Source: Gammaproteobacteria bacterium
GTDB taxonomy: Bacteria; Pseudomonadota; Gammaproteobacteria; Ga0077536
DNA: 64,000 nt
Assembly: GCA_050184115.1 (NCBI GenBank)
Contig: JBFXAQ010000014.1
Location: forward strand, 30,925-94,924
Direction of reading: 5' to 3'
The number at the start of each line of letters is the position of its first letter. Within the stretch, counting starts at the first letter, position 1. The position numbers were made by a program, and so were the translations under genes. The notes beneath the pieces were generated by a model. That model was given only the letters and a program-made list of their open reading frames with translations, had not been told where the DNA came from and made no database searches. Below are positions 3,669 to 35,039 of this stretch, piece by piece.

Positions 3669-3683
3669 GGAGCCGCGCTTACA

Positions 3684-3701: not shown

Positions 3702-3849
3702 TATTAACAGACGAAACGGGGAAATCCAGGCTGGTACGTATTTCGCCCGCGCAGCGGTCACCGGACGCCGGGCGGGCCGGCCGGGCGGCCGGTCGAGGGG
3801 GCGCCGCGCGGAATGGCAATCGCCGGGACCGGCGCGCGGGACTCGTGGG

Positions 3850-4212: not shown

Positions 4213-4437
4213 GCGGCCACCAGTGTTCTGCAGGTGGCATATTCTCGAACTTTTCTTCGCCCCGCGCACGGTGTGCGCGGGGCAGTGCGATGTCGTGGCC
4301 GTCGCCCTGGATGTGGCCGTGCGCAATGAGCGTGGTGATCGCCGTCGACCCCGCCGACGTATCGACATACATGCGTTTGCCGCCTGCTCCACGCGGCGGC
4401 GATAATCGCTCCGCCCCGATACCGAGCCCGTGCCGAC

Positions 4438-5394: not shown

Positions 5395-5397
5395 ACC

Positions 5398-5838: not shown

Positions 5839-5851
5839 CCGTCGCGCGCGT

Positions 5852-7219: not shown

Positions 7220-7314
7220 GCGACCGGCGCCGTGCGCCAGGGCACGGCGGCAAGTACACTGTCGCCCTGCGCCGCGCTGCCGTTGCGCGGCACCACGACA
7301 TATCGAACGAGACC

Positions 7315-8208
7315 ATGAGCGCAGCCACGCCCGGACCGACCTCGCACAGCTATTTTTCGCAGCGCCTGCGCCTGCACTACGTGGACTGGGGCAATCCCGA
7401 CGCACCACCACTGCTTCTGCTCCACGGCGGGCGCGATCACTGCCGTAACTGGGACTGGGTGGCCGAGGCATTGCGCGACGACTGGCACATCATCGCGCCG
7501 GACCTGCGCGGGCATGGCGACAGCGAGTGGTCGGCCGACGGCCACTACCCGATGGAGTGCTACATCTACGATCTCGCCCAGCTCATCCACCAGCAACAGC
7601 TTGCGCCTGTGACGATCGTCGCCCATTCGCTCGGCGGCAACATCGCGCTGCGCTACACCGGCTGCTATCCCGACACCGTACGCCGCCTCGTCGCCATCGA
7701 GGGTCTCGGCTTCTCGCCGGCCAAGCTCGCCGAGCGCGACGCGATCGGACTCGACGAGCGCCTGCGCGACTGGATCGACGACAAGCGCCAGCTCGCCGGC
7801 CGCCTGCCGCGGCGTTACGCCTCGATCGAGGAGGCCTACCAGCGCATGCAGGAAGAGAACAAGCATCTCTCGCCAGCCCGCGCGCGGCACCTCACCATCC
7901 ACGGCGTCAACCAGAACGAGGACGGCACGTATTCGTGGAAGTTCGACAACTACGTGCGCTCGTGGCCGGCCTATGACATGCCGCAGGCGGACGTCGAGCG
8001 CCTGTGGCGCAACATCACCTGCCCGACCCTGCTGCTCTACGGCAACGAGAGCTTCGCGTCCAATCCGGCGGAGGACGGCCGCGCGCGGCATTTCACGAAC
8101 GCGCGCATCGAGACCATCGAAAACGCCGGGCACTGGCTGCACCACGACCAGTTCGAGCGCTTCATGGAACTGGTGCAGGACTTCATCGCCGCCGGTGACG
8201 CGCGCTGA
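7315..8208 (+). CDS. Alpha/beta-fold hydrolase
   Basis: HGGRDHCRNW...AHSLGG (GxSxG nucleophile elbow) with a C-terminal His. Trimmed to MSAATPG from ORF 6577..8208. Confidence 0.8.
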   Translation: MSAATPGPTSHSYFSQRLRLHYVDWGNPDAPPLLLLHGGRDHCRNWDWVAEALRDDWHIIAPDLRGHGDSEWSADGHYPMECYIYDLAQLIHQQQLAPVTIVAHSLGGNIALRYTGCYPDTVRRLVAIEGLGFSPAKLAERDAIGLDERLRDWIDDKRQLAGRLPRRYASIEEAYQRMQEENKHLSPARARHLTIHGVNQNEDGTYSWKFDNYVRSWPAYDMPQADVERLWRNITCPTLLLYGNESFASNPAEDGRARHFTNARIETIENAGHWLHHDQFERFMELVQDFIAAGDAR

Positions 8209-8242
8209 ACGACTGCGGCGCGGGCGAGTGGGGTGGGCGAGT

Positions 8243-8275
8243 GGGGTCAGACCCCGAAGCTCAAGGGTTTGTTTC
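8243..8275 (+). terminator. Candidate intrinsic terminator after the hydrolase gene
   Basis: GGGGT-CAG-ACCCC hairpin followed by T-rich gggtttgtttcag. An inverted copy of the same hairpin (ggggtctgacccc) lies at ~8301-8313. Confidence 0.3.
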
Positions 8276-8381
8276 AGCGAGACTATCTGTTGACGACGGG
8301 GTCTGACCCCGACAGGTAAGTGGTTGATTGAGGTTTGTCGGGGCGGGAGCGCCCGGGCAGCCGGACGGACGGAGGACGAAG

Positions 8382-9566
8382 GTGCGAGCACTCGAGGAAT
8401 TCCGCGCGCAGACGCGCGCCTGGCTGGAAGAGAACTGCCCGCCGTCGATGCGCACGCCGCTGCCTGACGAGGAGCGCGTGTGGGGCGGGCGCAACGCGAC
8501 GTTCAGGCACCCCGACAGCAAGCTGTGGCTGGAGCGCGTCGCCGCGCGTGGCTGGACCGTGCCGACCTGGCCGGTCGAGTACGGCGGCGCGGGTCTCGAC
8601 GCCGAGCAAGCCCAGGTACTGCGCGAGGAGATGGCCCGGCTCAAGTGCCGCCAGCCGCTCGCGTCCTTCGGTATCTGGATGCTCGGCCCGGTGCTGCTCA
8701 AGTACGGCACCGAGGCGCAGAAGCGCGAGCACCTGCCCAAGATCGCCCGCGGCGAGATCCGCTGGTGCCAGGGTTACTCCGAACCCGGCGCCGGCTCCGA
8801 CCTCGCGTCACTCAAGACGCGCTGCGAGGACCAGGGCAACCACTACCTGGTCAACGGTCAGAAGATCTGGACCTCCTACGCCAACTACGCCGACTGGATC
8901 TTCTGCCTCGTGCGCACCGATACCAGCACCAAGCACAACGGCATCTCCTTCATCCTCTTCGACATGGCGAGCGAGGGCGTGGAGACGCGCCCGATCACCC
9001 TCATCAGCGGTGCCTCGGTGTTCTGCGAGACCTTTTTCACCGACGTCCGCGTGCCCAAGGACAACCTCGTCGGCGGCCTCAACCAGGGCTGGACCATCGC
9101 CAAGGAACTGCTCCAGCACGAGCGCGGCATGATCGCCGAGATCGGTCGCACCATCGGCGGCACGGTGCCGCCGGTCGACGTCGTCGCGCAGCACTACCTG
9201 GCCGACGCCGACGGCCACATCGGCGAGCCTGCGCTGCGCGATGCCGTCGCCCGCCACGTCATGAAGGACCGCGCCTTCGGCCTCACCATTCGCCGCGCCG
9301 CGCAGGAGAGCGAAGCCGGCACGGCCTCGGGTGGCCTGTCGTCGATGTTCAAGTACTACGGTACCGAGCAGAACAAGGCCAAGTTCGAACTCATCATGAA
9401 ATGCGCCGGCCACAACGCACTCGGCTGGGAGGGCGGAGGCTTCAGTGCGCAGGAACTGGAGATCTGCCGCACCTGGCTGCGCTCGAAAGGCAACTCGATC
9501 GAGGGCGGGACCTCGGAGGTGCAGTTGAACGTCATTGCCAAGCGCGTGCTCGGCCTGCCGGATTGA
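8382..9566 (+). CDS. Acyl-CoA dehydrogenase family protein
   Basis: ACAD N/M/C domain-like sequence (WTVPTWPVEYGGAGLD...RWCQGYSEPGAGSDLASL...). GTG start preceded by GGAGGA RBS. Confidence 0.8.
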   Translation: MRALEEFRAQTRAWLEENCPPSMRTPLPDEERVWGGRNATFRHPDSKLWLERVAARGWTVPTWPVEYGGAGLDAEQAQVLREEMARLKCRQPLASFGIWMLGPVLLKYGTEAQKREHLPKIARGEIRWCQGYSEPGAGSDLASLKTRCEDQGNHYLVNGQKIWTSYANYADWIFCLVRTDTSTKHNGISFILFDMASEGVETRPITLISGASVFCETFFTDVRVPKDNLVGGLNQGWTIAKELLQHERGMIAEIGRTIGGTVPPVDVVAQHYLADADGHIGEPALRDAVARHVMKDRAFGLTIRRAAQESEAGTASGGLSSMFKYYGTEQNKAKFELIMKCAGHNALGWEGGGFSAQELEICRTWLRSKGNSIEGGTSEVQLNVIAKRVLGLPD

Positions 9567-9576
9567 GGGAGAAGCG

Positions 9577-10716
9577 ATGAACCTGGTATTGAACGACGAA
9601 GAGGCCATCCTCAAGCGCGGGGCGCACGAGTATTTCGGCGAGCGTCTACCGGTGGCCGCCCTGCGCCGCCTGCGCGACGAGCGCGTTGTCGACGGCTTCG
9701 ACCGTGCGGCCTGGGCCGAGATGGCCGACATGGGCTGGGCCGGCGTGCTGCTGCCGGAGGCCTACGGTGGCGCCGGTTTCGGTTACCGCGGCATGGGCCA
9801 GATCCTGGAAGAGGCCGGGCGCACGCTGGCCGCCTCGCCGCTGGTCGCCACCGCCCTGAGCGCCGCGCCGCTGGTGCTCAGCGCCGGCAGCGAGGCCCAG
9901 CGCGAGGCCATCTTGCCCGCGGTCGCGGCCGGCGAGTGCCTGCTCGCGCTCGCTGTCGACGAGGGCGCGCGCCATGCGCCGAACCGGATCGCGACCACCT
10001 GTACGGCGGTCGAGGGCGGCCTGCGTCTCGACGGCACCAAGGTGTTCGTGCTCGATGGCCACGTCGCCGATCACTTCGTCGTCGTCGCACGCAGCCATGG
10101 CGCGGTCGATGCCGAGGACGGCATCAGCCTGCTGCTGGTGCCGGCCGACACCGCCGGCATCCGGGTCACCCGCACCGCCATGGTCGATGCGCGCAATGCC
10201 GCGCAGGTCGTGTTCGATGGCGTGACGGTCGACACCGGCGCCGTGCTCGGTACGCTCGGCGACGGCTACGCCGCCCTCGAACGTGCGCTCGATGGCGCGC
10301 GCGCGGGCCTCGCCGCGGAGATGCTCGGCAGCGGACTCGAAGCCTTCGAGCGCACCATCGCCTATCTCAAGTTGCGCGAGCAGTTCGGGCAGAAGATTGG
10401 CGCCTTCCAGGCCCTCAAGCACCGCACCGCGCTGATGTACTGCGAGATCGAATTGACCCGTTCGGCGGTACTGGCCGCGCTCGATGCTCTCGATGCCGGT
10501 AGCGCCGAAGCCCCGGCCCTGGCCAGCCTGGCCAAGGCCCAGGCCTGCGAGATGCTCGAACTGGTCACGAACGAGGCGGTGCAGATGCACGGCGGCATCG
10601 GCATGACCGACGCCGAAGAGATCGGTTTCTTCCTCAAGCGCGCGCGGGTCGCCCAGCAGACTTTCGGTGACGCGGCCTGCCATCGCGATCGCTACGCGCG
10701 CCTGGCGGGTTTCTGA
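9577..10716 (+). CDS. Acyl-CoA dehydrogenase family protein (second, adjacent; possible partner subunit)
   Basis: MNLVLNDEE... with ACAD C-terminal region (QMHGGIGMTDAEEIGFF). Start 10 nt after the stop of the upstream ACAD, with GAGGGAGAAG RBS. Confidence 0.75.
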   Translation: MNLVLNDEEAILKRGAHEYFGERLPVAALRRLRDERVVDGFDRAAWAEMADMGWAGVLLPEAYGGAGFGYRGMGQILEEAGRTLAASPLVATALSAAPLVLSAGSEAQREAILPAVAAGECLLALAVDEGARHAPNRIATTCTAVEGGLRLDGTKVFVLDGHVADHFVVVARSHGAVDAEDGISLLLVPADTAGIRVTRTAMVDARNAAQVVFDGVTVDTGAVLGTLGDGYAALERALDGARAGLAAEMLGSGLEAFERTIAYLKLREQFGQKIGAFQALKHRTALMYCEIELTRSAVLAALDALDAGSAEAPALASLAKAQACEMLELVTNEAVQMHGGIGMTDAEEIGFFLKRARVAQQTFGDAACHRDRYARLAGF

Positions 10717-12184: not shown

Positions 12185-13249
12185 TCAGGCCTTGCGCGGC
12201 GCGGCCTTCTTCGGCGCCTTTTTCTTCGTGGGCGTCTTCTTCGCGGACCGCGCGCCGGACGCCTTGTAGGCATTGAACAGGCGCTCCTTGGGATACTCCG
12301 CCCCGGCGACGTGCTCGATGGTCGAGATGCGCACCATCTGGTAGATGCGGATGCGGAACTCGGGGTCGCAGGACATGCGCACGTAGAGATCGCGCGGGGG
12401 CACGCCGTAATCCTCCGCCAGCCATTGCATGAGGTTGGCGGTGGCATCGTAGACCGCGTGCTCGAGCGGGCGATTGATGCCGACGGCGACGATGGAGTCG
12501 GGCTTCTCAATGCGCACGCAAGGCAGGCGCTTGTTCTTCACCACCGTGCAGGAAAGTTGCACCGTGGCTCGCGTTTCGTCGGCGATGCCGGTGAACTCGG
12601 TGTCGCCCTGGCCGCCGTGGCAATCGCCGATGTAGAGCAGGCCGCCGTCGTTGTAGCTGTTGAGGTAGACGGTGTGGCCGGCGCGGATGTCGCGACAGTC
12701 GATGTTGCCGCCGAACGGGCCCTGGCCGAGCACCGAGGTGAAGACTTCACGCTCGGGCGCGGTGGCCAAGGTGCCGATGAACGGTTCGAGCTTCCAGGTC
12801 AGCGAGTCGGAGTACTTGCCCCAGCCGTCGCGGGTATGCCCGCTCGGCCCCGGCAGGTGTTCGATGACGTGGACGTAGCCCTGCGCGCAGTCCTTGTAGC
12901 GCAGCGAGTCGCCGAGCGGGCCCATGCCGGGGATGATGCCCGAGAAGCCGTAGCGCCAGGGATCGATCCAGTCGATGTGCACGGCGAGCACGTCGCCGGC
13001 CTTGCAGCCCTCGACGAAGATCGGGCCGACCACCGGGTTGAACAGCCCCGGCGTGGCCTTGGCGAGGCTCGCGAAATGCTTGCCCTCGAAGCCCATCACC
13101 TTGGGGTGGTCGCTGTCATCGGCGATCATGCCGGACAGGGCGTCATCCGTTTCGACCCGGAAGGTCTCACCCGGCTTGACCTTGAGGCATGGCTTGTCAC
13201 GGTTGTCGAAGGCGTATTTCTGGACCTTGCGGCGCTTGATCGTGCGCAT
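12185..13249 (-). CDS. Acetamidase/formamidase (FmdA/AmdA family) with Lys/Ala/Pro-rich C-terminal tail
   Basis: FmdA_AmdA-like sequence (GPIFVEGCKAGDVLAVHI...CRDIRAGHTVYL...). Strong RBS GGGGAGGGAAAACG before ATG (MRTIKRRK). C-terminus KASGARSAKKTPTKKKAPKKAAPRKA. Confidence 0.75.
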   Translation of the reverse strand: MRTIKRRKVQKYAFDNRDKPCLKVKPGETFRVETDDALSGMIADDSDHPKVMGFEGKHFASLAKATPGLFNPVVGPIFVEGCKAGDVLAVHIDWIDPWRYGFSGIIPGMGPLGDSLRYKDCAQGYVHVIEHLPGPSGHTRDGWGKYSDSLTWKLEPFIGTLATAPEREVFTSVLGQGPFGGNIDCRDIRAGHTVYLNSYNDGGLLYIGDCHGGQGDTEFTGIADETRATVQLSCTVVKNKRLPCVRIEKPDSIVAVGINRPLEHAVYDATANLMQWLAEDYGVPPRDLYVRMSCDPEFRIRIYQMVRISTIEHVAGAEYPKERLFNAYKASGARSAKKTPTKKKAPKKAAPRKA

Positions 13250-13391
13250 CGTTTTCCCTCCCCGGATGGATGTCACCGAGCGGGCATTCTAAGCCCGCGA
13301 CGCGGGCAAATTGCCCTGTCTGCTCGTATGACCGGCGCGTAGCGTGGTCGACGAGCCGGGACTGCGACCCGGTCGGAGGAGGACCCAACCC

Positions 13392-23258: not shown

Positions 23259-23314
23259 AGCGGTCAGGGCACATCCATATCAATCGACACCGTCAAACGA
23301 GGGGAGAACACACC

Positions 23315-24472
23315 ATGCAGGACATCGGCAAGCTGCTGCCGCTCGACGAGCAGGTCAACCACCAGATCATCGATACCTTTGCCACTGTCGCGCAGTCGGA
23401 CCTGTCGTGGACGGAGAAGTTGTGGACGCCGGTTTCGCGCAAGGACGGCAGCCTGCAGCTCGACATGGGGATGGGGCGCTATCCCAACCGCGGCGTTCTC
23501 GATGGCTTCGCCGGCCTCTCGCGCGGGCTCGAGCAGTGGACGGTACGGGCCAGCCGCGAACTCTCGCTCGACCCCTTGGCGACCGCGGTCGGCCCGCTCA
23601 GTTACGAAGTCCTCGAACCCTTGAAGCAGGTGCGCTGGAAGCTCGAGAAGAACGACATCGTCCCGCTCGAGTTCGACATCACCTTCCATGCAACCTTCCC
23701 GGCCTTCTTCGAGGATCGCCACATCCAGCGCGACGAGCACAGCTTTCGCGTCGTCTCCAACGTGGTGCGCTACCACCAGGCGGGCGAACCCAGCGGCTGG
23801 TACGCCATCGACGGCAAGCGCGAGACCATCAACACCGAGGACTGGTTCTGCTACCGCGACCATTCCTGGGGCGTGCGTCTCGACGTCGGTGCGCCGCCGT
23901 CGGACCTGCGCCCGGCACGCGACTTCGGCGAGCGCAAGTTCGAGGATTCCAAGTTCCTGCTCAATTGGTCACCGCTGCTGTTGCAGCGACCCGACGGCAG
24001 TCGCTACGAGTATCACTTCTACCTGCAGATCCGTGGTGACGAGGTGTTCTACTTTTCCGGCTATCGCAACCACGCCGACGGCCGCCAGGAGCGCATCGCA
24101 CGCGCGCGCCCGGAACTGCGTTACGTCGACGAGACTCGCCGCCTGATCGGCGGTCGCATTCATTTCGACATGCTCTCGGGCGAGACGGCGACGGTCGAAC
24201 TCGAGGTACGTGGCGAGTCCGGCTTCTACCTGGGGCCCGCCCTCTATCTCGGTTTCGACGGCAAGAAGCACGGCAACTGGCGCGGCGAACTCGCGCTCGA
24301 CGGCGAGCAGATCCCGGACATGACGAATCCCGAGGTGCGCAAGCGCATGGGCTCGGCCGTGCGCGACACCATCGTCGCCGTGCGCGAGGGCGAGGCCACC
24401 GGCCATGGCCTGTTCGAGCCCATCGTGCTGGGCGAGTGGCCGGACCTCGAACTCTACGGCACCCAGCCCTGA
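23315..24472 (+). CDS. Conserved hypothetical protein (385 aa), unknown function
   Basis: Strong RBS GAGGGGAGAA before ATG 23315. Soluble, Trp/Tyr-rich. No family recognised with confidence. Confidence 0.5.
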   Translation: MQDIGKLLPLDEQVNHQIIDTFATVAQSDLSWTEKLWTPVSRKDGSLQLDMGMGRYPNRGVLDGFAGLSRGLEQWTVRASRELSLDPLATAVGPLSYEVLEPLKQVRWKLEKNDIVPLEFDITFHATFPAFFEDRHIQRDEHSFRVVSNVVRYHQAGEPSGWYAIDGKRETINTEDWFCYRDHSWGVRLDVGAPPSDLRPARDFGERKFEDSKFLLNWSPLLLQRPDGSRYEYHFYLQIRGDEVFYFSGYRNHADGRQERIARARPELRYVDETRRLIGGRIHFDMLSGETATVELEVRGESGFYLGPALYLGFDGKKHGNWRGELALDGEQIPDMTNPEVRKRMGSAVRDTIVAVREGEATGHGLFEPIVLGEWPDLELYGTQP

Positions 24473-25477: not shown

Positions 25478-25567
25478 GGGCGGAGCGGAATTAAGTGCCG
25501 GGCCTTGCGGCCCGGCGAGGGGAGGTCCCAAGTACAGGTTTCGAGGGGAGGTCGATCTGCATTGGTG
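25478..25567 (-). ncRNA. Sibling sRNA 1 of 5 (CcsR/cuckoo-like, two CCUCCCCUC motifs)
   Basis: Minus strand has -35 TTGCGA, 16-nt spacer, -10 TAGACT. Variable-stem hairpin with loop UCGACCUCCCCUCGAAA, then GGGACCUCCCCUC. Terminator GCCGGGCC-GCAA-GGCCCGGC followed by ACUUAAUU. Confidence 0.55.
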
Positions 25568-25745
25568 AATACAAGTCTACACTAAAAATGCGGCATCGCA
25601 ACAATTTTATTGCACAACAGCATTTCCAATCTCGCTTGGCCCGTCACGGGAATCCGCGCCCGCGTAGTGAGCCTTCCAGTCGCGGTCGAGCCAAATAGCC
25701 GCGGAGCACGGCATGTGGCGCGCTAACGGAAGACAATCGGCAGGG

Positions 25746-25835
25746 GAAATTAAGTGCCGGGCCTTGCGGCCCGGCGAGGGGAGGTCCCAAGTACAGGTTT
25801 CGAGGGGAGGTCGATCTGCATTGGTGAATACAAGT
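25746..25835 (-). ncRNA. Sibling sRNA 2 of 5
   Basis: Near-identical to copy 1 over ~190 nt (offset 268 nt). Same promoter, hairpin and terminator. Confidence 0.55.
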
Positions 25836-25997
25836 CTACACTAAAAATGCGGCAGTGCAACATTTATATTGCATAACAGCATTTCCAATCTCGCCTGGCC
25901 CGTCACGGCAACCCGTGCTGTTTACGAGGCAATCTCGGCCGAACAGGATTGCCGCGAGGTACCGCGCACGGTGCGGTGAAGGTCGAGAATCGGTGGG

Positions 25998-26078
25998 CGA
26001 TTTAAGAGCCGGGCCTTGCGGCCCGGCGAGGGGAGGTCCCGAGTACAGGTTTCGAGGGGAGGTCGACCTGTATCGGAG
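25998..26078 (-). ncRNA. Sibling sRNA 3 of 5
   Basis: -35 TTGCAC, 16-nt spacer, -10 TATCAT. Hairpin stem CCGAUACAGG/CCUGUACUCGG, covarying relative to copy 1. Conserved loop and terminator. Confidence 0.5.
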
Positions 26079-26183
26079 GATGCCATGATACACGGTTTAT
26101 GTCGCAGTGCAACATTTCCCTGGGTGCTCGTGGCGCGCAGGCTGATGTGTCTGCAAAGCAGGCCCGTTCAGATGCCAAGGTCG

Positions 26184-26267
26184 GAAAATAAGAGCCGGGC
26201 CTTGCGGCCCGGCGAGGGGAGGTGCCAAAGACGGTTGTCGAGGGGAGGTCGAGCGTCCGTCTTGGTG
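26184..26267 (-). ncRNA. Sibling sRNA 4 of 5
   Basis: -35 TTGCGG, 16-nt spacer, -10 TATACT. Hairpin stem CCAAGACGG/CCGUCUUUGG (covarying). Terminator followed by CUCUUAUUUUCC. Confidence 0.5.
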
Positions 26268-26444
26268 TAAGCGAGTATAGGCGCCCTGTACCGCGCCGCA
26301 ACAACCAATTTGGAATAAGTCTATTCCCTTTCGTCAGCAAGGGGTTCTGCCAAGGACCTCAAGCTATGACTCAGATAGGGTCCCGAGCCGCGGCAACGAC
26401 ACCACAGCGGATCGGTGCAAGGCCGTTCGGACGAGGCGAGCGGG

Positions 26445-26528
26445 AAAATTAAGTGCCGGGCCTTTGCGGCCCGGCGAGGGGAGGTCCCAGTAACAGAATC
26501 GAGGGGAGGTCGAAGGACTGTTATGGTG
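26445..26528 (-). ncRNA. Sibling sRNA 5 of 5
   Basis: -35 TTGCGT, 16-nt spacer, -10 TATACT. Hairpin stem CCAUAACAG/CUGUUACUGG (covarying). Terminator loop has one extra U. Confidence 0.5.
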
Positions 26529-26617: not shown

Positions 26618-28405
26618 TCAGGCCGGTTCGCAAGGACGTTCGGTGCGCGCGAAACCGGCCCGTCGCAGCCACAGGGCGTAGTGCTCGCGATCCTCCTCGT
26701 GGCGAAACGGCATGCGCGCGAGGTGGTCGTCGAGATCGAACTCGGGGTAATGCTCCAGATAGCGATCGACGTAGCGTGATGCCTCAGCGGTCTCTCCGAG
26801 CGCGGCATGGATGGCCGCAAACCAGCGGCAGGCCGACACCTGCGGCGTGTGCAGTTCCTTGATCACCGCCGCGGCAGCGACATAGCGCCGGGCGACGAAG
26901 TTGGCCGCGGCGTAGAGACTGCGCGGCCAGTCGCCGAGGAAGGGGTTGATGTCGAAAGCCCGCTCGAGCAATTCCATGGCACGTTCCGGTTCTCCTGCCA
27001 GGGTCAGCGCCTGGGCCAGGAAGGCGTAGCAGTCGGCGTCATTCATGTTGAGCTCGAGCGCGGTCTCGAAACATTCGATGGCCTTGTCGAGATCCTTGCG
27101 GAAGAAATGCACCATGCCGAGACACAGGCGATAGGTGTGGGCCGAAGGATCCAGGTGCGCGGCGCGCTGGGCGTAGTCGAGCGCCTTGTCGAGCGAACCC
27201 TGCGGGTCGCAGGTCCAGTATTCGTTGTAGGCGACTGCGTAGGTCCAGGCGATGCCAGCGTAGGCACGCGGATACTCCGGGTCGACCTGGATCGCCTGCA
27301 GGTAGAGCCCGCGGGCGGCGAGGTTGTCCTCGCGATTGAACTTCAACCACAGCTCGCGCCCGCGCAGGACGAGGTCGTAGGCGGCGACGCTGTGCGCGGC
27401 CTGCTCGCTGCGCGCACGTTTACGCTCGCTGACTTCGAGGCGCCCGACCAGGGTCGAGACGATGCGGCGGGTCAATTCGTCCTGGACGGCGAAGACGTCC
27501 TCGAGGCGACGGTCGAAGCGCTCCGCCCACAGGTGATGGCCGCTGGCCGCCTCGATGAGCTGCGCATTGACCCGCACCCGGTCACCGGCCTTGCGCACGC
27601 TGCCCTCGAGGATGTAGCGCACGTTGAGGTCGCGCCCGATGTCCTGGGCGCGGGGCGCGCGTCCCTTGTAGCTGAAACTCGTGTTGCGCGAGGTGACGAC
27701 GAGATCCTTGAAGCGTGACAGCTCGGTGATGACATCCTCGGTGATGCCGTCGGCGAAGTATTCGTCTTCCGACTGGCCGGTCATGTTGGTGAAGGGCAGC
27801 ACGACGATCGACGGTCGTGCCGGTGGTGCCGCGGCCGGCGCCACTGGCGAGAGCTCCGTCGCGGCACCGTCGACGTCTTCTCCTTCGTCGAGCGCGTAGA
27901 CGCGCACCGGACGCGCGATGTTCTTGACCTCCTGCTCGCCGAGGAAGCGCCAGCGCGTGTCGCCGCGACCGACGACGAAGTCGTGGGCCGGCCCCGACAG
28001 GGTGATCGAGCCCGGCTCGGCGAGCGCTTCCAGGCGCGCGGCAATGTTGACCCCCTCGCCGTAGATGCTGCCGTCGCTCTGCTGCAGGATGTCGCCCAGG
28101 TTGATGCCGATGCGGAAACGCATGCGACGCGGCTCCGGTCGTTCGGCGTTGCGCCGGGCGAGTTCGGCCTGGATGGCGAGGCTGGCATCGAGCGCTTCCA
28201 GCACGCTGTCGAACACCGCCAGGACGCTGTCGCCGGCCGTGTCGACCACCCGCCCGCCATGTTCGGCGGTGAACTCGCGGAACACGTCGCGCGAGGCTTC
28301 AAGCATCGTCACCGTGTCCGCTTCGTCCTCGCCCATCAGCCGCGAATAGCCGGCAACGTCGGCGCTGACGATGGCGGCGAGGCGGCGTCGAGGCTCGGTG
28401 AACAT
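26618..28405 (-). CDS. Class III adenylate/guanylate cyclase fused to TPR-repeat domain
   Basis: N-terminal CHD cyclase domain (AAIVSADVAGYSRLMGEDE...GINLGDIL...GEGVNIAARLE), then a TolB-like linker and C-terminal TPR repeats. Confidence 0.8.
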   Translation of the reverse strand: MFTEPRRRLAAIVSADVAGYSRLMGEDEADTVTMLEASRDVFREFTAEHGGRVVDTAGDSVLAVFDSVLEALDASLAIQAELARRNAERPEPRRMRFRIGINLGDILQQSDGSIYGEGVNIAARLEALAEPGSITLSGPAHDFVVGRGDTRWRFLGEQEVKNIARPVRVYALDEGEDVDGAATELSPVAPAAAPPARPSIVVLPFTNMTGQSEDEYFADGITEDVITELSRFKDLVVTSRNTSFSYKGRAPRAQDIGRDLNVRYILEGSVRKAGDRVRVNAQLIEAASGHHLWAERFDRRLEDVFAVQDELTRRIVSTLVGRLEVSERKRARSEQAAHSVAAYDLVLRGRELWLKFNREDNLAARGLYLQAIQVDPEYPRAYAGIAWTYAVAYNEYWTCDPQGSLDKALDYAQRAAHLDPSAHTYRLCLGMVHFFRKDLDKAIECFETALELNMNDADCYAFLAQALTLAGEPERAMELLERAFDINPFLGDWPRSLYAAANFVARRYVAAAAVIKELHTPQVSACRWFAAIHAALGETAEASRYVDRYLEHYPEFDLDDHLARMPFRHEEDREHYALWLRRAGFARTERPCEPA

Positions 28406-28427
28406 GGCGGAACCGCGCGGTGATCTC

Positions 28428-30692
28428 TCAATCGAGCAACGGCTTGCCGCTGACGAATCGATCGAGCACGTTCTTGGTGATGCGCGAGACGTTGTTCCTG
28501 TAGTTGTCGTGGGCGAGCGAGCCCGGCCAGGCGATCGAACTGGTCGCGAACACGCCGCCGCCGTTGGCGGTCTCGTAGAAGACGAGATCCGCGCGTACGA
28601 GGTCGTTCTCCTGGCCGCCGGTGCCGGGGTAGTTGATCAGCATCTCCTCGCACACCACGAGGTAGATGTCGGTGTGATCCTCCGAGGATGCCAGCAGGTA
28701 GGCATTGGGCGGTGTGCCCAGCGCACGGTCGGCGCGGTCGAGCTCGAGCCCGGCGGCGCCGCCGCCGATGAGGCCGAAGTCGCCGATGCGCTCGTCGGCG
28801 CCGACGCCGTTCATGATCCAGCGCACCTCCTTCCTGAAGCTGTCCGGCTTGCGCACGTAGTACGACGAGATGTCGAAACCCTGGGCGGTGAAGCCGGTGC
28901 CGACAATCTGCTGCGGCGGGCGGCCGTTACGTCGCCACAGTCCGCCGTACTCGCCGGTGAAACCGTGGTAGTACTCGCCCGTGCGCGCCTCCCAGGCGCG
29001 GATGCCGTCTTCGTTGCGCCGCACCTCGATGATGCCGGGCACCTCGCCGTGGTAAGCGATGCGCCAGTACCAGCCGTTGGCGCCCAGGTACATGAAGCGG
29101 CCGCCGCGCTGCTGCCAGGCATGCAGCGCATCCCACATCTGCTTCGAGTGGTATTCGGGATGCGAAGACGACAACACCACGCGGTAGGGCTCGATGGACT
29201 TGAGGCCTTCGTAGTGCAGCTCTTCGTCGGTGATGACGTCGTACTCGTAGCCCATGTTCTCGAGCCAGTTGATGATGTGGGTGTCGGCGTTGAACTGCCA
29301 CAGGGTCGAGCCCTCGCCACCCAGCCACGACTTGTACTTCGGCCGCATGTTGAGGATGGGGCGCAGGCGCGAGGAATGGCACACGCCCGAGCCGTCCGAA
29401 TGCACGTCGTAGCAGCTCGAACCATACTCGCGGTGCACGTTGCGGTAGAGATCCTGCCGCTCGTGCTCGACCAGGCGACCGCCGAGCAGCTGGGCAATCG
29501 GCGCGTCCGTGCCCATGTGCTCGTTGGCGTAGGCCATGTAGCTGGCCGTCGGCAGCACGAAACAGATCTTCGCCGTCGCCTGGCCGCGCGGCGGCAGCAC
29601 CGCGAACGGCACGTAGTCCTCGTCTTCGAGAGCCGCGCCGCAACGCAGGCGCGCGCAGTAGAGACCACTCTTGAGATTCTTCGGCACGGTCAGCGAGACA
29701 TCGACCTGCCAGGCCGCGTCGTAGACGTCGTCGTCGTGGAAGTGGATGGCGCCGTACTCGCGTGGCGCGTGGCGCCAGTTCATCTCCTCGCCGCTCCAGT
29801 TCCAGCCGGTCATGCCGCGCGCCGGCATGTGTACGACGTGCCCGTGCAGCCGGTTGGGTGAAAGATCGGAGACGCGCAAGCCGGTGATGTCGGTACTGAA
29901 GTCCCAGGCGCCGAAGACGTCGTTGGCCAGCGTGCGATCGAGGTTCGGTGCACGCAGGGTTTCCATCTCGGCGCGGTCGAGGGCGCGGGTCGCGATGCGC
30001 GGGCTGTCGATCTTGCCGTTGTAGTGCTGGTCGCACACCGTGCGGCCGGCGTCGAAGCGCTGGAAGCGGGCGGCGAGGGTGACGGGGCCATCGTGGCCGC
30101 CGAGGCGGGCTGTCTTCGCCGTGGCGCGGACGAGCGCCGCGTCGCGCGTGCCGACATGGGTGTGCAGGGGTTCCTGGATCAGCACCACTTTCTTTGTCCG
30201 GGCATCGAAGCTCGCGGCGATGAAATACCACTCGTGGGCGAGCAGGGCACGCCCGGTGGTGAAGGTTTCGCTGCGGCCGCGGGCGCCACCGAGGGTGAGC
30301 GAGATGCCGCCGTTGTCGGCGGCGATGCCGAGCACTGCGCCACCGCCCTGGCGACCTGCCCAATGGCTGATCAGCGCCTGCGCGCCGCGTTCTGGAGTAG
30401 TTGGCCAGATGAAGGCTTGCAGCGTGAAGCTGTCGAGTGCCGGCATGTTGTCGGCGCGCGGGATCTCGACGAACGAGCCGGCGTGAATCACCTGCTTGCG
30501 GCCCTTGTAGGTGCCGTTGGCCGGCGTGCGCACGACGCGTTCCTGGTACCCCGGGCCGTCCGGATTCATGTCGCCGCAGATCAGGCGCACGAAGTCGGCG
30601 CGAAATTCCCTCGCATCGCAGTTGACCATGAAGTTGATGGTTTCACCGGGCGCCACGCTGACGCGGTCGGCATAGGCAGTGATCTTCATCAT
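28428..30692 (-). CDS. dmfA2: N,N-dimethylformamidase large (beta) subunit
   Basis: ~755 aa. Start MMKITAYADRVSVAPGE with strong RBS GGGGGGAGGAAACAG. Sequence resembles the DMFase large subunit of Paracoccus/Methylobacterium/Alcaligenes type. Confidence 0.65.
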   Translation of the reverse strand: MMKITAYADRVSVAPGETINFMVNCDAREFRADFVRLICGDMNPDGPGYQERVVRTPANGTYKGRKQVIHAGSFVEIPRADNMPALDSFTLQAFIWPTTPERGAQALISHWAGRQGGGAVLGIAADNGGISLTLGGARGRSETFTTGRALLAHEWYFIAASFDARTKKVVLIQEPLHTHVGTRDAALVRATAKTARLGGHDGPVTLAARFQRFDAGRTVCDQHYNGKIDSPRIATRALDRAEMETLRAPNLDRTLANDVFGAWDFSTDITGLRVSDLSPNRLHGHVVHMPARGMTGWNWSGEEMNWRHAPREYGAIHFHDDDVYDAAWQVDVSLTVPKNLKSGLYCARLRCGAALEDEDYVPFAVLPPRGQATAKICFVLPTASYMAYANEHMGTDAPIAQLLGGRLVEHERQDLYRNVHREYGSSCYDVHSDGSGVCHSSRLRPILNMRPKYKSWLGGEGSTLWQFNADTHIINWLENMGYEYDVITDEELHYEGLKSIEPYRVVLSSSHPEYHSKQMWDALHAWQQRGGRFMYLGANGWYWRIAYHGEVPGIIEVRRNEDGIRAWEARTGEYYHGFTGEYGGLWRRNGRPPQQIVGTGFTAQGFDISSYYVRKPDSFRKEVRWIMNGVGADERIGDFGLIGGGAAGLELDRADRALGTPPNAYLLASSEDHTDIYLVVCEEMLINYPGTGGQENDLVRADLVFYETANGGGVFATSSIAWPGSLAHDNYRNNVSRITKNVLDRFVSGKPLLD

Positions 30693-30726
30693 TGTTCTGT
30701 TTCCTCCCCCCAGATCGTACGTCGGC

Positions 30727-31053
30727 TCAGGCGCGCAAGGTTTCACCCGTCAGCGCCTTCCAGCGCTGGCGGAAGACGTACCACTCGGCCTCGGTCTGGC
30801 TGGTGAAACGCCGGTTGAGCAGCTTGACCGGTTCGCCGGGTTTGCCGGTGGTCCGGGCGAGCTGCCATTCACGGTTGGGCTTGATCACCACCAGGCAGTA
30901 CTTGTCTGCCATGGGCGCACCGCGCATGCGCGTGAGCAGGCGCTGCAGGTCCGGACTGTGGTGTCCGATCGGGTTGTGCTTGAATTCCTCGATGAGGCGG
31001 CGGTCGTCCGCCTGCGGCCGGTAGTTCTCGTGCGCTTCTTTGAGTTCTGCCAT
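30727..31053 (-). CDS. dmfA1: N,N-dimethylformamidase small (alpha) subunit
   Basis: 108-aa MAELKEAHENYRPQADDRRLIEEFKHNP... ORF 34 nt upstream of the large subunit, with GGGGAGGA RBS. Trimmed from ORF 30727..31239. Confidence 0.6.
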   Translation of the reverse strand: MAELKEAHENYRPQADDRRLIEEFKHNPIGHHSPDLQRLLTRMRGAPMADKYCLVVIKPNREWQLARTTGKPGEPVKLLNRRFTSQTEAEWYVFRQRWKALTGETLRA

Positions 31054-31150
31054 GGCTTGTCCTCCCCGCGTGCCAGTGGATTGAACGCGAGCGGGGAGTA
31101 TAGCGCCGAACCCGGCGTGCCCCGTGACGGCGATGTCCCGCCCCGGCGCG

Positions 31151-32014
31151 TCAGAACGGGGTGCCGTGACGGGCCGCGTAGTCGCCGTAGGCCGGCGTGA
31201 GCCGCGCCAGGGCCGGGCGGTCGGCGCCGCCGATGGCACGGTCGTCGAGGCTGGCGATACCGATCAGCCCGGCGCCGCTGCCGCACAGGAAGGCTTCGTC
31301 CGCGCCGACGAGATCATAGGCGGTGAGCGGGCGTTCGCAGGCGCGGCCGCCGCCGGCCTGCCAGCATTCGAGCACGGTGGCCCGCGTGATACCGGGCAAC
31401 GCACCTTCGCTGGTCGGCGGCGTGACCAGGGTGTCGTCGATGACGGCGAAGACGTTCGCGCCGCTGGCCTCGGCGATGCGCGCCTCGGCGTTCAGCAGCA
31501 GGGCTTCGTCGTAGCCGCGCAGTCGCGCTTCGCGCTTGGCCAGCACGTTGTTGAGGTAGTTGAGACTCTTGACCTGGGGATCGAGCATGTCCGCCCGTGG
31601 CCGGCGCTGGCTGGCGGTGGCGAGACGCAGGCCACGCGCCCTCACCTCGTCGGGAAACATGCGGATATCGGCGACGATGCAGTAGAGCTCGGGCTCGTGG
31701 CAATCGGTCGGGTCGAGCGTGAGCGCGCCGACGCCGCGGGTGACGAGCAGGCGGACGTAGGCTTCGGCCGCGCCGTGGGCGCGCGCCGTTGCGCACACCA
31801 CCGCGGCCAACGCGGACCCGGCGAGCGGCAGGTCGAGGCCGATGGCGCGTGCGGAGCGCGCGAGGCGCGCGAGGTGGGCGTCGAGGCGGAACACCCGTCC
31901 GCCGGTGATGCGGATGCCCTCGAACACGCCGTCGCCGTAGAGCAGGCCGTGATCGAGCAGGGGCACGCGGCAGTCGCGCGCATCGCCGATGTGTCCACGA
32001 TGCCAGACCTTCAT
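31151..32014 (-). CDS. Class IV aminotransferase (branched-chain amino acid / D-amino-acid aminotransferase family)
   Basis: MKVWHRGHI...LLDHGLLYGDGVFEGIR...EAFLCGSGAGLIGIASLD is the IlvE/DAAT fold. RBS GGAAGGAGAG. Start overlaps the IclR stop (ATGA). Confidence 0.75.
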   Translation of the reverse strand: MKVWHRGHIGDARDCRVPLLDHGLLYGDGVFEGIRITGGRVFRLDAHLARLARSARAIGLDLPLAGSALAAVVCATARAHGAAEAYVRLLVTRGVGALTLDPTDCHEPELYCIVADIRMFPDEVRARGLRLATASQRRPRADMLDPQVKSLNYLNNVLAKREARLRGYDEALLLNAEARIAEASGANVFAVIDDTLVTPPTSEGALPGITRATVLECWQAGGGRACERPLTAYDLVGADEAFLCGSGAGLIGIASLDDRAIGGADRPALARLTPAYGDYAARHGTPF

Positions 32015-32742
32015 GTCGTCTCTCCTTCCAGTCGTAGAGCGATGCCTTCGGCGGCGTGGCGCACGCGGCGCACCGCGGCTGCTGTGCCGAGGGCGTGAAA
32101 ACGGGCGGCGACCATGGCCAGCGCGACGCAGCCTTCGAGCCGGCCCGCGACCTGCACCGGCGCCGCCGCGACGCACAGGCCGGCCTGCCATTCCTCGTCG
32201 TTGACGGCCCAGCCGCGGTTGCGCGCCTCGTCGACGGCCGCGTTGAGCGCGGCCCGGCTGCGCAGTGTCGCCGGGGTGTAACGCGGCAAGGTGTCGAGTT
32301 CGACAGTGGCTGGCGCAAGAGCGAGGTAGAGCTTGCCGACCGCCGTCGCATGCACCGGCACGTGCGAACCGAGCCGCGGCGCGGCCCGCAGGAAGCCGTC
32401 GCCCTCGGCCTTGGCCAGCACCACCAGGCGTGCGCCACGGGCGACGACGAGGAAGAAGGTCTCGCCGAGTTCGTGGGCGGCGGCTTCGAGCACCGGCTGC
32501 GCGGCATGGGCGACGGGTTCACGTCGCGCGCAGGCCAGCCCCAGGGTCATCAGCCCGAGGCCGGCCTGGTAGCGCCCCTCGGCGTCGCGCTCGACCAGGC
32601 CGCGCGCAACCAACGGCGCGAGGATGCGATGGGCGCTCGAACGCGGCATGTCGAGGCTGCGCGCGATGTCGGCCAGGCGCAGCGCCTGCCCGGCCTGACC
32701 GAGCAGGAAGAGGGCGTCGAGGGCCTTGTCGATGGTTGTCAT
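32011..32742 (-). CDS. IclR-family transcriptional regulator
   Basis: N-terminal wHTH (LRLADIARSLDMPRSSAHRILAPLVARGLVERD) plus IclR effector domain. Translationally coupled to the aminotransferase. Confidence 0.85.
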   Translation of the reverse strand: MTTIDKALDALFLLGQAGQALRLADIARSLDMPRSSAHRILAPLVARGLVERDAEGRYQAGLGLMTLGLACARREPVAHAAQPVLEAAAHELGETFFLVVARGARLVVLAKAEGDGFLRAAPRLGSHVPVHATAVGKLYLALAPATVELDTLPRYTPATLRSRAALNAAVDEARNRGWAVNDEEWQAGLCVAAAPVQVAGRLEGCVALAMVAARFHALGTAAAVRRVRHAAEGIALRLEGETT

Positions 32743-32754
32743 GATGTTCCGTAT

Positions 32755-32786
32755 TTCAGAACAGTGTTCTTGAATTCAGAACAAGG
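32755..32786. promoter_or_regulatory. Candidate IclR operator: TTCAGAACA direct repeat containing a 13-bp palindrome AGAACAgTGTTCT
   Basis: ttcagaacagtgttcttgaattcagaacaagg lies in the divergent iclR / methyltransferase intergenic region. Local GC is low. Confidence 0.4.
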
Positions 32787-32967
32787 ATTCGCATCTTCGC
32801 TTGCCGTCGTCAAGCCTGCCGCGATTCCTCCAAGAAATCCGGGGACGAGGCGAGCGCGGAGCCGTCCCCGCCGCCGCCCCTGTCGTCCACGGCCTGCACC
32901 GGCCGTTCCGCCATGTGGTACAAGGCGGCATCCGTTACACGTCGACAGTCGAGGAGGGGATCGAAGC

Positions 32968-34023
32968 ATGGACAAGGCGCGCATGAAGGCGATGGCCGAC
33001 CGCGTGTTCCGCGATGTCGCCGGGGGCATGGCGGCGGGACTGGCCTGGCTCGGCTGCGAGACCGGGCTGTTCCGCGTGCTGGACGAGCGTGGGCCGCTCG
33101 GCTTTGCGGCGCTGGCGGAGGCCAGCGGACTGGTGCCGCGTTACGTCGAGGAGTGGGCGCGCGGCATGGTCGCCGCCGGTTACCTCGACTACGACCCGGC
33201 CGCACAGACCGTCAGCCTGCCGGCGGAGCACGCCTGGTTGCTGGCTTCCGACGGCACCGATCACTACATGGGCGGCCTGTTCGGCATGGTGCCGCCCTTG
33301 ATGGCCGTGGCGCCGCGTATCCGCGCGGCGTTCCGCGAAGGTGGCGGCGTGCCCTTCGCCGATTTCCCGCCGGAGTGCCGTCACGCCATCGATCTCATGA
33401 ACCGCGGCAACTACGAACACCGCCTGGCGAGTTATTGGCTGCAGCAGCTGCCGGACACGGTGGCACGGCTCGAAGCGGGCGGTCGCGTGCTCGATCTCGG
33501 GTGCGGCAACGGCCAGGTGGTGGTGGCGCTGGCGCGGGCGTTCCCGAACAGCACCATCGTCGGCGTCGATCCGGACGCGGCCTCCATCGCCGCGGCACGC
33601 GCGGCTGTCGCCGCGGCCGGCGTCGCCGCCAATAGCGAACTCGTGCAGGCGACGCTCGACGCCGTGCCGCTAGAACCCGCCTTCGATCTCGTCACCGCCT
33701 GCGATTGCCTGCACGACCTGCCCGACCCGGTCGGTGTGCTGCGCGACGTGCGCGCCCACCTTGCCCCGCATGGTGTGCTGCTCGCCATCGAGCCACGCGT
33801 GGCGGACCGCTTGGAGGACAACGTCAATCCGCTGGCCGCGATGTTCTACGGCTTCAGCGTCTTTCACTGCACGACCCAGTCGATGGCGCACGACGGTGCA
33901 GCGCTCGGTGCCTGCATGGGGCCCACGCGCACCCGGGCGTTGTTCCGCGAAGCCGGCTTCTCGCGTGTCGAGGAGGTTGACGTCAGGAGCCCGGTGAATC
34001 TCTTCTACGCGGTCTACGCCTGA
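32968..34023 (+). CDS. Class I SAM-dependent methyltransferase (O-methyltransferase-like with N-terminal dimerisation/wHTH domain)
   Basis: LDLGCGNGQVVVALARAFP (motif I GxGxG) and acidic motif II. RBS GAGGAGGGGA before ATG 32968. Trimmed from ORF 32056..34023. Confidence 0.75.
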   Translation: MDKARMKAMADRVFRDVAGGMAAGLAWLGCETGLFRVLDERGPLGFAALAEASGLVPRYVEEWARGMVAAGYLDYDPAAQTVSLPAEHAWLLASDGTDHYMGGLFGMVPPLMAVAPRIRAAFREGGGVPFADFPPECRHAIDLMNRGNYEHRLASYWLQQLPDTVARLEAGGRVLDLGCGNGQVVVALARAFPNSTIVGVDPDAASIAAARAAVAAAGVAANSELVQATLDAVPLEPAFDLVTACDCLHDLPDPVGVLRDVRAHLAPHGVLLAIEPRVADRLEDNVNPLAAMFYGFSVFHCTTQSMAHDGAALGACMGPTRTRALFREAGFSRVEEVDVRSPVNLFYAVYA

Positions 34024-34047: not shown

Positions 34048-34854
34048 TCATTTCTTCAGCTGGTCTTCGCGGCTCTTCATCGGGAAGTGCATGGCGAAGG
34101 GGCGCGGCCAGGCGGAGGGCAGGTCGACCAGCGTGCCGCCCGTCGACACCGTCTCGGCGAGTTCGAGGGCGGCAGCGAGCACGGCGCGCTGACCGTCGGC
34201 GTCGTTGGGTGCGCCGAGCGCGTTGCCCATGGGGTGGTTGACGAAAGCCGTGCGCGGCGCGCGCACGTTCCACGACAGGTCGCGACCGGTCGAGAGCAGG
34301 GTGGTGACGATGCCGTGCTCCTCGACCACGCGCGCGACGAGGCCGGCGGTCTGGTGATCGAGCGGGCAGGCCGGGATCAGCACCAGCACGTCGACACCGT
34401 CGGCGGCGAGCTCGCGCGCGAAGGCCGGCGCGGCGATCTCGCACACCTCGTTGCGGATGTAGATGCGGCCCATGAAGCCACTCCACAGCCGTGATGCGAC
34501 ACTGCCGATGAACCCGCTCGCGGCCAGCTCGTGCAGGCGCGTGAGCGGGAACTGGCAGTTGATGTCGCGGCTGGCGTCGCGGTGATCGTAGTAGTTGTCG
34601 TGGATCTGGAAACCGTCGGCGGGAGTGTCGGCCGGGATGGCATCGAGGCGCAGGTCGTTGCGCGCATTGGCGTCGAAGGGCGCCGCAGTGGCGAGCGAGA
34701 TGCCGCCGGTGGTGAGCAGCGACACGCGGCATTCCGCCAGGGGCTTCGCCAGGCGCGCAAGCGGGGCGCTGTCGTTGACGGTCCAGTCATAGGGCGGAAA
34801 GCCGAGTGACTGGTAGCGTGCATTGAGCTCGTCGACGTAGGCGAGTGGTTGCAT
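34048..34854 (-). CDS. Conserved hypothetical protein (possibly GrdB/PrdB-reductase-related fold)
   Basis: 268 aa from MQPLAYVDELNARYQ. No firm family. The GrdB/PrdB suggestion is a weak recollection. Confidence 0.35.
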   Translation of the reverse strand: MQPLAYVDELNARYQSLGFPPYDWTVNDSAPLARLAKPLAECRVSLLTTGGISLATAAPFDANARNDLRLDAIPADTPADGFQIHDNYYDHRDASRDINCQFPLTRLHELAASGFIGSVASRLWSGFMGRIYIRNEVCEIAAPAFARELAADGVDVLVLIPACPLDHQTAGLVARVVEEHGIVTTLLSTGRDLSWNVRAPRTAFVNHPMGNALGAPNDADGQRAVLAAALELAETVSTGGTLVDLPSAWPRPFAMHFPMKSREDQLKK

Positions 34855-35039
34855 GACGATCTTCCCGTGAACGACCACGCGCGGACGCACGTGCGGCCTG
34901 CGCAGGTTAATCAATTCACCGTGGACCTGTCATGGTGCGGCGGATCGCGTGGGTGAGCGCGAATGGCGCTCCGGGATAGCGGACCAGCGGCGCGGACCGT
35001 GCGTCGAGGGCGCCGCAGCGCCCTCGACGATGGCTCACG

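Follow-up and report, generated by a model that had tools for sequence, protein, structure and literature searches.

At positions 28428-31053 of a 64,000-nucleotide (nt) stretch of gammaproteobacterial DNA (contig JBFXAQ010000014.1; hereafter 'the window', meaning the whole stretch analysed), two adjacent genes encode a small and a large protein whose membership in the N,N-dimethylformamidase (DMFase) protein family is secure. A preliminary description of the window had named the pair dmfA1-dmfA2, after the enzyme (EC 3.5.1.56) that hydrolyses N,N-dimethylformamide (DMF) to dimethylamine and formate. Its coordinates are correct, and to these we add the strand, which it did not give and which is minus for both genes. 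Here we report that the family assignment stands, whereas the name dmfA1-dmfA2 and DMF as the substrate are not transferable: the pair, with an alpha subunit of 108 and a beta subunit of 754 amino acids (aa), represents a subfamily of its own, which is ancient and widely distributed in the environment. The genes and their translation signals are as follows.

31053..30727, minus strand: small (alpha) subunit gene; ATG start, 108 aa, begins MAELKEAHENYRPQ; a short form of the DMF_alpha family
30692..28428, minus strand: large (beta) subunit gene; ATG-ATG start, 754 or 753 aa; Ig-like/LamG (pentraxin-like) N-terminal region followed by a C-terminal DMFA2_C domain
31067-31061, minus strand: Shine-Dalgarno sequence GGGGAGG of the small-subunit gene, read from the sequence, 7 nt before the ATG
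30711-30703, minus strand: Shine-Dalgarno sequence GGGGGGAGG of the large-subunit gene, read from the sequence, 10 nt before the first ATG

The arrangement described earlier, a 108-aa gene followed after 34 nt by the large gene (754 aa), is borne out by the read-out of open reading frames (ORFs), and strong ribosome-binding sites indeed precede both genes. The GC content at third codon positions is 0.88 and 0.81 for the two genes and thus typical of the other genes in the window, which has 68.6% GC overall. The exact 754-aa product has no record in the assembly collection, and the identical 108-aa protein is on record solely on one contig of 1.96 kb.

The large protein matches the Pfam model DMFA2_C with 333 bits against a gathering cut-off of 27 (E 3.6e-99, profile positions 3-372 of 374) and Laminin_G_3 with an E value of 6e-11. 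Its best match in the PDB is 6LVB_A, the large subunit of the Paracoccus DMFase, which aligns over residues 4-751 (620.7 bits, E 3.5e-185), whereas the N-acetyl-(R)-beta-phenylalanine acylase 8HUY gives a weaker match (502 bits, E 1.7e-149); NCBIfam holds no model that matches either subunit. In the Paracoccus enzyme the Fe(III) ion is liganded by Y399, Y440 and E521, and H519, N547 and E657 are essential as judged by mutagenesis (PMC7686228). All six residues are identical in the window protein, where Y388, Y428 and E513 are the predicted iron ligands, corresponding to Y399, Y440 and E521, and H511, N539 and E650 the predicted counterparts of H519, N547 and E657. Their diagnostic value was assessed in an alignment of 237 sequences comprising 79 members of the window clade (the window protein included), 7 plasmid homologues, 2 PDB proteins and 149 representatives drawn from a search of 1.84 billion proteins. 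The catalytic hexad is invariant in all 79 clade members, and it is invariant or nearly so across the entire alignment including the acylase, an enzyme with another substrate; the hexad consequently marks the family and does not discriminate between substrates.

The small subunit has diverged further in sequence, but its identity is equally clear. For the 108-aa protein 106 clusters of homologues were found, with identities of 54-94% (60% or more in 94 clusters), and an alignment of 21 small-subunit sequences contains 21 invariant columns. The family PF26354 (DMF_alpha) is the precomputed Pfam assignment of the identical protein, and neither NCBIfam nor a Pfam copy without the DMF_alpha model yielded a match. 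A phmmer comparison of the single sequence with 6LVB_B gives an E value of 1e-3, and the profile of 21 clade members aligned by hhalign with Methylobacterium DmfA1 reaches 96% probability (E 2.3e-9, residues 19-102 on 42-127). The AlphaFold model has a pLDDT of 84, and its only significant fold matches in the PDB are the DMFase small subunits 6LVB_B (E 5e-6) and 6LVV_B, with template modelling (TM) scores of 0.61-0.64 (6LVV_B: TM 0.64, root-mean-square deviation 2.6 A). The protein is a true homologue of the DMFase alpha subunit. Since the aligned core starts at residue 19 in the window form and at residue 42 in DmfA1, the former is about 23 residues shorter at its N-terminus, and in the Paracoccus DMFase this stretch contains the N-terminal helix, which wedges between the large subunits (PMC7686228). 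This wedge helix would be lost in the window small subunit.

In high-GC DNA long spurious ORFs are abundant, and with neither protein matching an NCBIfam model the small ORF might be taken for a chance reading frame or the pair for the remnant of a decaying pseudogene. The breadth of the homology, the invariant columns and the confident fold of the small protein refute such a reading, as do the full-length alignment of the large protein to 6LVB_A without frameshifts, the gene-like GC content by codon position and the strong ribosome-binding sites on both genes; we regard the chance of it as negligible.

A variant of the small subunit is found on the Agrobacterium tumefaciens plasmid pAt (locus L089 of our genome scan, 2281-3936), where the DMF_alpha domain forms residues 465-548, the C-terminal ~85 residues, of a 551-aa LivM-type ABC permease (hhalign 97%, E 1.2e-10) encoded directly upstream of a large-subunit homologue. 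Fusions of this type are probably the reason why free-standing small subunits of 102 to 107 aa are named 'ABC transporter permease' in public records.

Family membership says little about which branch of the family the pair belongs to, and it is here that the window enzyme departs from the validated DMFases. Its large subunit is 44-46% identical to the three validated enzymes (6LVB, Methylobacterium DM1 and pAMI2), 38% identical to the acylase and 44-49% identical to uncharacterised plasmid homologues. In a neighbour-joining tree the window protein and 78 loci from the genome scan form a single clade (95 of 100 bootstrap replicates), and the trio of validated DMFases forms a separate one (100 of 100). 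The bootstrap value is 3% for a grouping with the Burkholderia vietnamiensis homologue and 4% for a 27-member group around the DMFases; no sister relationship is claimed because none is supported. The family as a whole comprises 1340 clusters in a 50%-identity library at E < 1e-30, about 32 of which score above 620.7 bits, the value that 6LVB_A obtains in the separate PDB search. A scan that covered 185,579 species with one genome each yielded 121 confirmed matching stretches for the window clade, the hosts of which are uncultured Gammaproteobacteria, Binatia, Rhodospirillales and Myxococcota as well as marine single-cell and Tara genomes. The nearest relative, L024, has 95% amino-acid identity, and its collinearity extends over 8.1 kb (87% nucleotide identity). 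The enzyme is thus not a rare one, nor is it restricted to methylotrophs: the earlier statement that it is known from a handful of methylotrophs holds for the validated clade only, and it fails for the window clade in view of the 121 stretches and the ocean data discussed below.

A published genome survey detected genes for the large and/or the small DMFase subunit in 4.5% of complete genomes and the small gene in only 41 genomes or metagenome-assembled genomes (MAGs; bioRxiv 10.1101/2021.03.18.435917); its KOfam model for the small subunit is likely to have overlooked the form of 108 aa. In Pacific metaproteomes, 'DmfA' from Alpha- and Gammaproteobacteria was found to correlate with archaeal AmoA (PMC9477243), which would fit a natural role in the remineralisation of nitrogen, although the assignment of these peptides to the window clade is putative.

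The residues that surround the active site separate the window clade from the validated DMFases as well. F693, contributed by the neighbouring large subunit, constricts the substrate pocket and has been tied to substrate selectivity (PMC7686228); it is the only pocket residue named in the DMFase papers and supplement that we searched for such residues. Phenylalanine occurs at this position only in the three validated DMFases, whereas the window protein has isoleucine and the clade as a whole I, V, A or M. Within domain III, 58 positions are conserved within each of the two clades yet differ between them; the acylase agrees with the window clade at 26 of these and with the DMFases at 7. The aromatic residues W454, W561, F611, Y656, F693 and W735 are found in the DMFases alone and are replaced by R, G, Q, L, I and H, respectively, in the window clade (Y656 being Leu in the window protein itself); the published pocket is described as having 'bulky aromatic side chains', to which these residues putatively correspond. 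Around the catalytic residues the window clade largely equals the family-wide consensus. Read together with the agreement with the acylase, this pattern suggests that the validated DMFases are a derived branch.

A comparison with the individual systems known to date illustrates the same point. The DmfA1/DmfA2 pairs of Paracoccus sp. DMF (6LVB), Methylobacterium sp. DM1 (pLVM1) and Paracoccus aminophilus (pAMI2) have the same order of small followed by large gene, and DmfA2 is collinear with the window large subunit over its full length, with a like three-domain layout and identical iron ligands (Y/Y/E) and catalytic residues (H/N/E). DmfA1 has a like fold, with ~36% identity over 81 columns, but the window form is shorter by 24-33 aa at its N-terminus. 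The validated loci consist of LuxR-dmfA1-dmfA2 on plasmids, flanked in pAMI2 by an IS5-like and an IS3-like transposase, one on either side, and accompanied in pLVM1 by an IS21-like transposase 3.8 kb upstream, whereas the window pair lies in a chromosomal-looking setting downstream of an IclR regulator and a BCAT-like aminotransferase gene. In tree position, in F693 and the other clade-specific residues and in the type of locus (LuxR, plasmid, insertion sequence), the window pair therefore differs from the validated DMFases. It also differs from the acylase (8HUY, 8I59, 8I5A), which shares the fold family of the large subunit and all six catalytic residues but is only 38% identical and placed elsewhere in the tree, and of which the deposited chains represent the large protein only, while the window has a small subunit.

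A functional precedent for caution is AceAB of Pigmentiphaga sp. D-2, a two-subunit (alpha/beta) DMFase homologue that is reported to cleave the synthetic insecticide acetamiprid and to be inactive on DMF or its analogues (PMC11573777). As this precedent shows, two-subunit architecture does not dictate specificity for DMF, and homology is insufficient to assign it. Uncharacterised pairs are present on the plasmids pBVIE01 of Burkholderia vietnamiensis G4, p1 of Aminobacter niigataensis DMFA1, pAMI5 of P. aminophilus and pAt of Agrobacterium, and in Halalkalicoccus jeotgali; their large subunits are 44-49% identical to that of the window, each is preceded by a DMF_alpha-like ORF, and they belong to other subfamilies. 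The small subunit of B. vietnamiensis has the window motif NPIG(H/Y)HSP.LQR...EAE..VFR.RW. Frequent companions of these pairs are ABC transporters of the HAAT or PAAT type, an AmiS/UreI channel or amine-oxidising enzymes.

Further genes of the window discussed here, three of them next to the pair and one 15 kb away, are the following.

31151..32014, minus strand: class-IV aminotransferase gene, BCAT type, 287 aa (Pfam Aminotran_4, E 1.7e-58)
32011..32742, minus strand: IclR-family regulator gene, 243 aa (Pfam HTH_IclR, IclR_C)
32968..34023, plus strand: Rv2258c-like S-adenosylmethionine (SAM)-dependent methyltransferase gene, 351 aa, divergent (Pfam Methyltransf_12/23/25, HTH_65)
13288..12185, minus strand: FmdA_AmdA-family gene (Pfam FmdA_AmdA, E 1.5e-22; NCBIfam FmdA, 47 bits against a cut-off of 500)

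An upstream and co-directional IclR regulator translationally coupled to a class-IV aminotransferase had been noted before, together with a divergent SAM methyltransferase, and both hold: the stop codon of the IclR gene overlaps the start of the aminotransferase gene (ATGA; junction GACGACATGAAGG), the Pfam matches support both assignments, and the methyltransferase gene lies at 32968-34023 on the plus strand. The aminotransferase gene is on the same strand as the small-subunit gene and 97 nt upstream of it, with no terminator-like site between them. The PDB chains nearest to its product are the archaeal BCATs 5MQZ, 5E25 and 5CM0, and in NCBIfam it scores best with BCAT models, without reaching any of their cut-offs; it contains YGDGVFEGIR and YVR, which, going by E. 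coli IlvE, we take to be BCAT-type motifs. A scan of 28200-33200 for promoters and terminators gave little information, with no promoter-like site and one terminator-like site, which lies within the large gene, a count below chance expectation; the 97-nt gap contains a -10-like TATACT that could serve as a candidate for independent transcription of the amidase pair. The window has no Rfam match.

In the wider window the order around the pair is ADC-family gene, TetR, a gene of unknown function, APH-family gene, a repeat-filled gap of 1.1 kb, adenylate cyclase-TPR gene, large and small subunit; beyond the small gene follow the BCAT-like aminotransferase, IclR, the divergent methyltransferase and then TrkH and a two-component system. 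The proposed formamidase/acetamidase (given as 12185-13249) belongs to the FmdA_AmdA family, but with 47 bits against 500 it is a divergent member and no FmdA orthologue. It lies 15 kb from the amidase pair, behind genes for DUF924, thioesterase, deacetylase-family, NeuB, cytidylyltransferase, ADC-family, TetR, APH-family and adenylate cyclase proteins. Among ~50 ORFs scanned across the window we found neither dimethylamine or methylamine genes nor transposases. The idea of an amide/amine catabolic island is therefore rejected: unrelated genes separate the FmdA-like gene from the pair, the FmdA-like gene is below its cut-off, the scanned ORFs include no methylamine genes, and IclR and the BCAT-like gene accompany the pair in its nearest relatives only.

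Several features of the window stand apart from the amidase pair. The gap between the APH-family and cyclase genes is filled by a repeat array at 25486-26513, consisting of five copies of a ~70-nt unit in which a GC-rich hairpin (GCCGGGCC-TTGC-GGCCCGGC) precedes two GAGGGGAGGTC motifs. The copies start 259, 252, 186 and 261 nt apart, with 95% identity between the first two periods across 171 nt. The array has no Rfam match. A 30-nt core of it is present four times there (against 0 expected by chance) and is otherwise absent from the window; L004, L006, L024 and L095 have it at the corresponding place, downstream of the cyclase gene. Two ORFs, at 23300-24472 (plus strand, 390 aa) and 34048-34914 (minus strand, 288 aa), are well conserved and have no Pfam match; the latter is 87% identical in L024.

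The gene neighbourhoods of the related loci were compared for clues to the substrate. The small gene lies directly upstream of the large gene in 76 of 81 loci, and an all-against-all clustering of these 81 loci for a universally conserved accessory gene found only the small-large pair itself to be conserved. Among the nearest gammaproteobacterial relatives, a subclade with L024, L007, L009 and L023, the genes again follow the order IclR-aminotransferase-small-large, and in two truncated loci, L008 and L011, the gene directly upstream is likewise that of the aminotransferase. In L095 and L096 a three-gene RND efflux operon on the opposite strand (1286-7997) lies between the IclR-aminotransferase and the small-large genes, the small subunit there being 84% identical to that of the window; this insertion indicates that the two halves of the apparent four-gene operon are separable. 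The methyltransferase gene recurs beside the module in six related loci, with synteny by tblastn in L005, L009, L023, L024 and L035, and directly abuts the small-subunit gene in L005; we treat it as context only.

Other lineages have other neighbours. The marine members have a response regulator and a histidine kinase upstream. In the Rhodospirillales loci L057 (4391-13492) and L063 (4237-13456) an AraC/FeaR-like regulator, the small and the large gene are followed by a full HAAT-type ABC transporter, comprising a binding protein, two ATPases and UrtB/LivH-like and LivM-like permeases. About 15 loci, mostly from Binatia (L032-L082; for example, L050 at 8239-9291), have a 2-oxoglutarate-Fe(II) oxygenase gene (DIOX_N and 2OG-FeII_Oxy) right after the large gene, and Binatia and related loci have a molybdopterin oxidoreductase and a Zn-dependent alcohol dehydrogenase upstream. 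The neighbours are thus lineage-specific and the context does not reveal the substrate; the pattern is suggestive of a catabolic module of two genes that is inducible and travels as a unit. Individual loci show further peculiarities: L063 also has a divergent gene for a fusion of an APH and a class-III aminotransferase protein, and in L002, from a gammaproteobacterial MAG of 5.7 Mb, a 280-aa protein with no Pfam match is encoded between the aminotransferase and small genes (9140-9982), and the stop codon of the small gene overlaps the start of the large gene by 4 nt.

What, then, does the enzyme act on? The claim that the pair is a genuine DMFase, whose physiological task is to split DMF into dimethylamine and formate, can draw on the DMFase being the best solved-structure match for both subunits, on the complete hexad and on adjacent genes for the two subunits as in pAMI2 and Methylobacterium DM1. 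We nonetheless consider it unlikely. The pair lies outside the validated clade at 44-46% identity, the hexad is universal in the family including the acylase, F693 and the other DMFase-specific residues are absent, and the locus has neither the LuxR-type dmfR nor an insertion-sequence or plasmid cassette. The ORFs scanned in the 64-kb window include no genes for the catabolism of dimethylamine or methylamine, members of the clade are widely found in lineages of the open ocean and of soil, where one would not expect DMF, and AceAB demonstrates that a two-subunit homologue can be inactive on DMF. Active-site conservation, which the preliminary description had proposed as a test, has thus given a double answer, since all six residues are kept but are not diagnostic of a DMFase; the proposed comparison with DmfA1 and DmfA2 of Paracoccus and Methylobacterium established homology for both subunits. 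What stands of the dmfA1-dmfA2 assignment is a two-gene, small-plus-large operon of the DMFase family with a full active site and the Paracoccus DMFase as its best structure match. DMF as the substrate does not stand, given the separate clade (95% bootstrap), the non-discriminating hexad, the change of F693 to isoleucine and the reported inactivity of AceAB on DMF.

An alternative that takes its cue from the upstream genes is that the enzyme deacylates an N-formyl or N-acetyl amino acid, or a related primary amine, and feeds the co-transcribed BCAT-like aminotransferase under the control of IclR, all in a four-gene catabolic operon. The coupled IclR-aminotransferase genes 97 nt upstream on the same strand, with no intervening terminator-like site, would fit this, as would the recurrence of the gene order in L024, L007, L009 and L023 and of the upstream aminotransferase in L008 and L011, with the halves split in L095 and L096. 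One family member is an N-acetyl-beta-amino-acid acylase, and a homologue in Burkholderia vietnamiensis has an amino-acid ABC transporter and a D-amino-acid dehydrogenase as neighbours. Dimethylamine, the product of a DMFase, cannot undergo transamination. Yet only a single subclade of the Gammaproteobacteria shows the linkage: it did not turn up in the ~6 kb upstream in L003 to L005, with the methyltransferase gene abutting the small gene in L005, and it is absent from the marine loci with their two-component system, from the Rhodospirillales loci with AraC and ABC transporter and from the Binatia loci examined. The halves can be separated by insertion, TATACT in the 97-nt gap could drive independent transcription, and the bootstrap value for the grouping with the Burkholderia homologue is only 3%. 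On balance we find this proposal improbable, marginally more so than a physiological DMFase.

Our preferred reading, which we hold to be likely, is that the pair encodes an enzyme of a natural-substrate subfamily within the DMFase family, with no specificity assigned beyond that of the family. With family-consensus surroundings of the active site and without the substitutions of the plasmid-borne DMFases, its physiological substrate is most likely a small N-substituted amide that occurs in nature, perhaps a formamide or acetamide. No transporter is conserved across the clade, so the substrate probably either permeates the membrane or arises within the cell; and with IclR, a two-component system or AraC upstream according to lineage, expression is probably inducible. 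Some activity in vitro on formamide, N-methylformamide or DMF is possible.

Certain observations weigh against the preferred reading. Between the two substrate classes with solved structures, the window protein is nearer to the DMFase than to the acylase (620 versus 502 bits), and YANE and YD.H beside the iron-binding tyrosines are common to the window protein and the DMFases, whereas a pairwise alignment gives YANY and YN.H for the acylase. The deeper nodes of the neighbour-joining tree are without support, and a location of the 58 differing positions in the pocket is putative. The Paracoccus DMFase also hydrolyses formamide, N-methylformamide and N-ethylformamide (PMC7686228), which makes turnover of DMF by the window enzyme possible. 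Finally, the name of the MAG of the nearest relative (JACKNG01, with a 95% identical large subunit), HK-STAS, suggests activated sludge, an environment in which DMF can occur; this is a point in favour of a DMFase, to the extent that a habitat may be read from a name.

The mechanism, as opposed to the substrate, can be transferred from the Paracoccus DMFase with good confidence by homology. The pair most likely forms a cytoplasmic two-subunit amidohydrolase of alpha2beta2 composition, as in Paracoccus. A mononuclear Fe(III) would be held by the tyrosinates Y388 and Y428 and the glutamate E513 of the large subunit and would activate a water molecule, with E650 as the putative base, N539 as the stabiliser of the oxyanion and H511 in an essential role. 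The predicted outcome is cleavage of the amide C-N bond to yield a carboxylate and an amine. In the Paracoccus DMFase the large subunit alone is inactive (PMC7686228), and the small subunit of the window enzyme may similarly stabilise the large one and help to form the substrate entrance.

A more specific version of the natural-substrate reading is tentative, and we rate it as doubtful. It would see the pair as an ancestral-like, environmentally expressed iron amidase with which bacteria of ocean, soil and sludge remineralise a natural N-substituted amide, and the DMFases as an offshoot that specialised recently. In the lineage of the window it would have become wired to IclR and a BCAT-like gene, a connection from which it would follow that the amine product is a transaminable primary amine or amino acid and not dimethylamine.

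For the window alone these results amount to an ordinary refinement of annotation, in which the family is already known and the member is new. Their wider bearing lies in surveys of genomes and metaproteomes, which routinely label all members of the family 'N,N-dimethylformamidase' and infer the degradation of DMF. As the diagnostic-looking active site is universal and the validated DMFases are a small, derived and plasmid-borne branch, this inference is unsafe. The branch to which the window pair belongs is common in uncultured environmental bacteria, and identification of its substrate would give a role to a family that has been detected in ocean metaproteomes in correlation with ammonia oxidisers.

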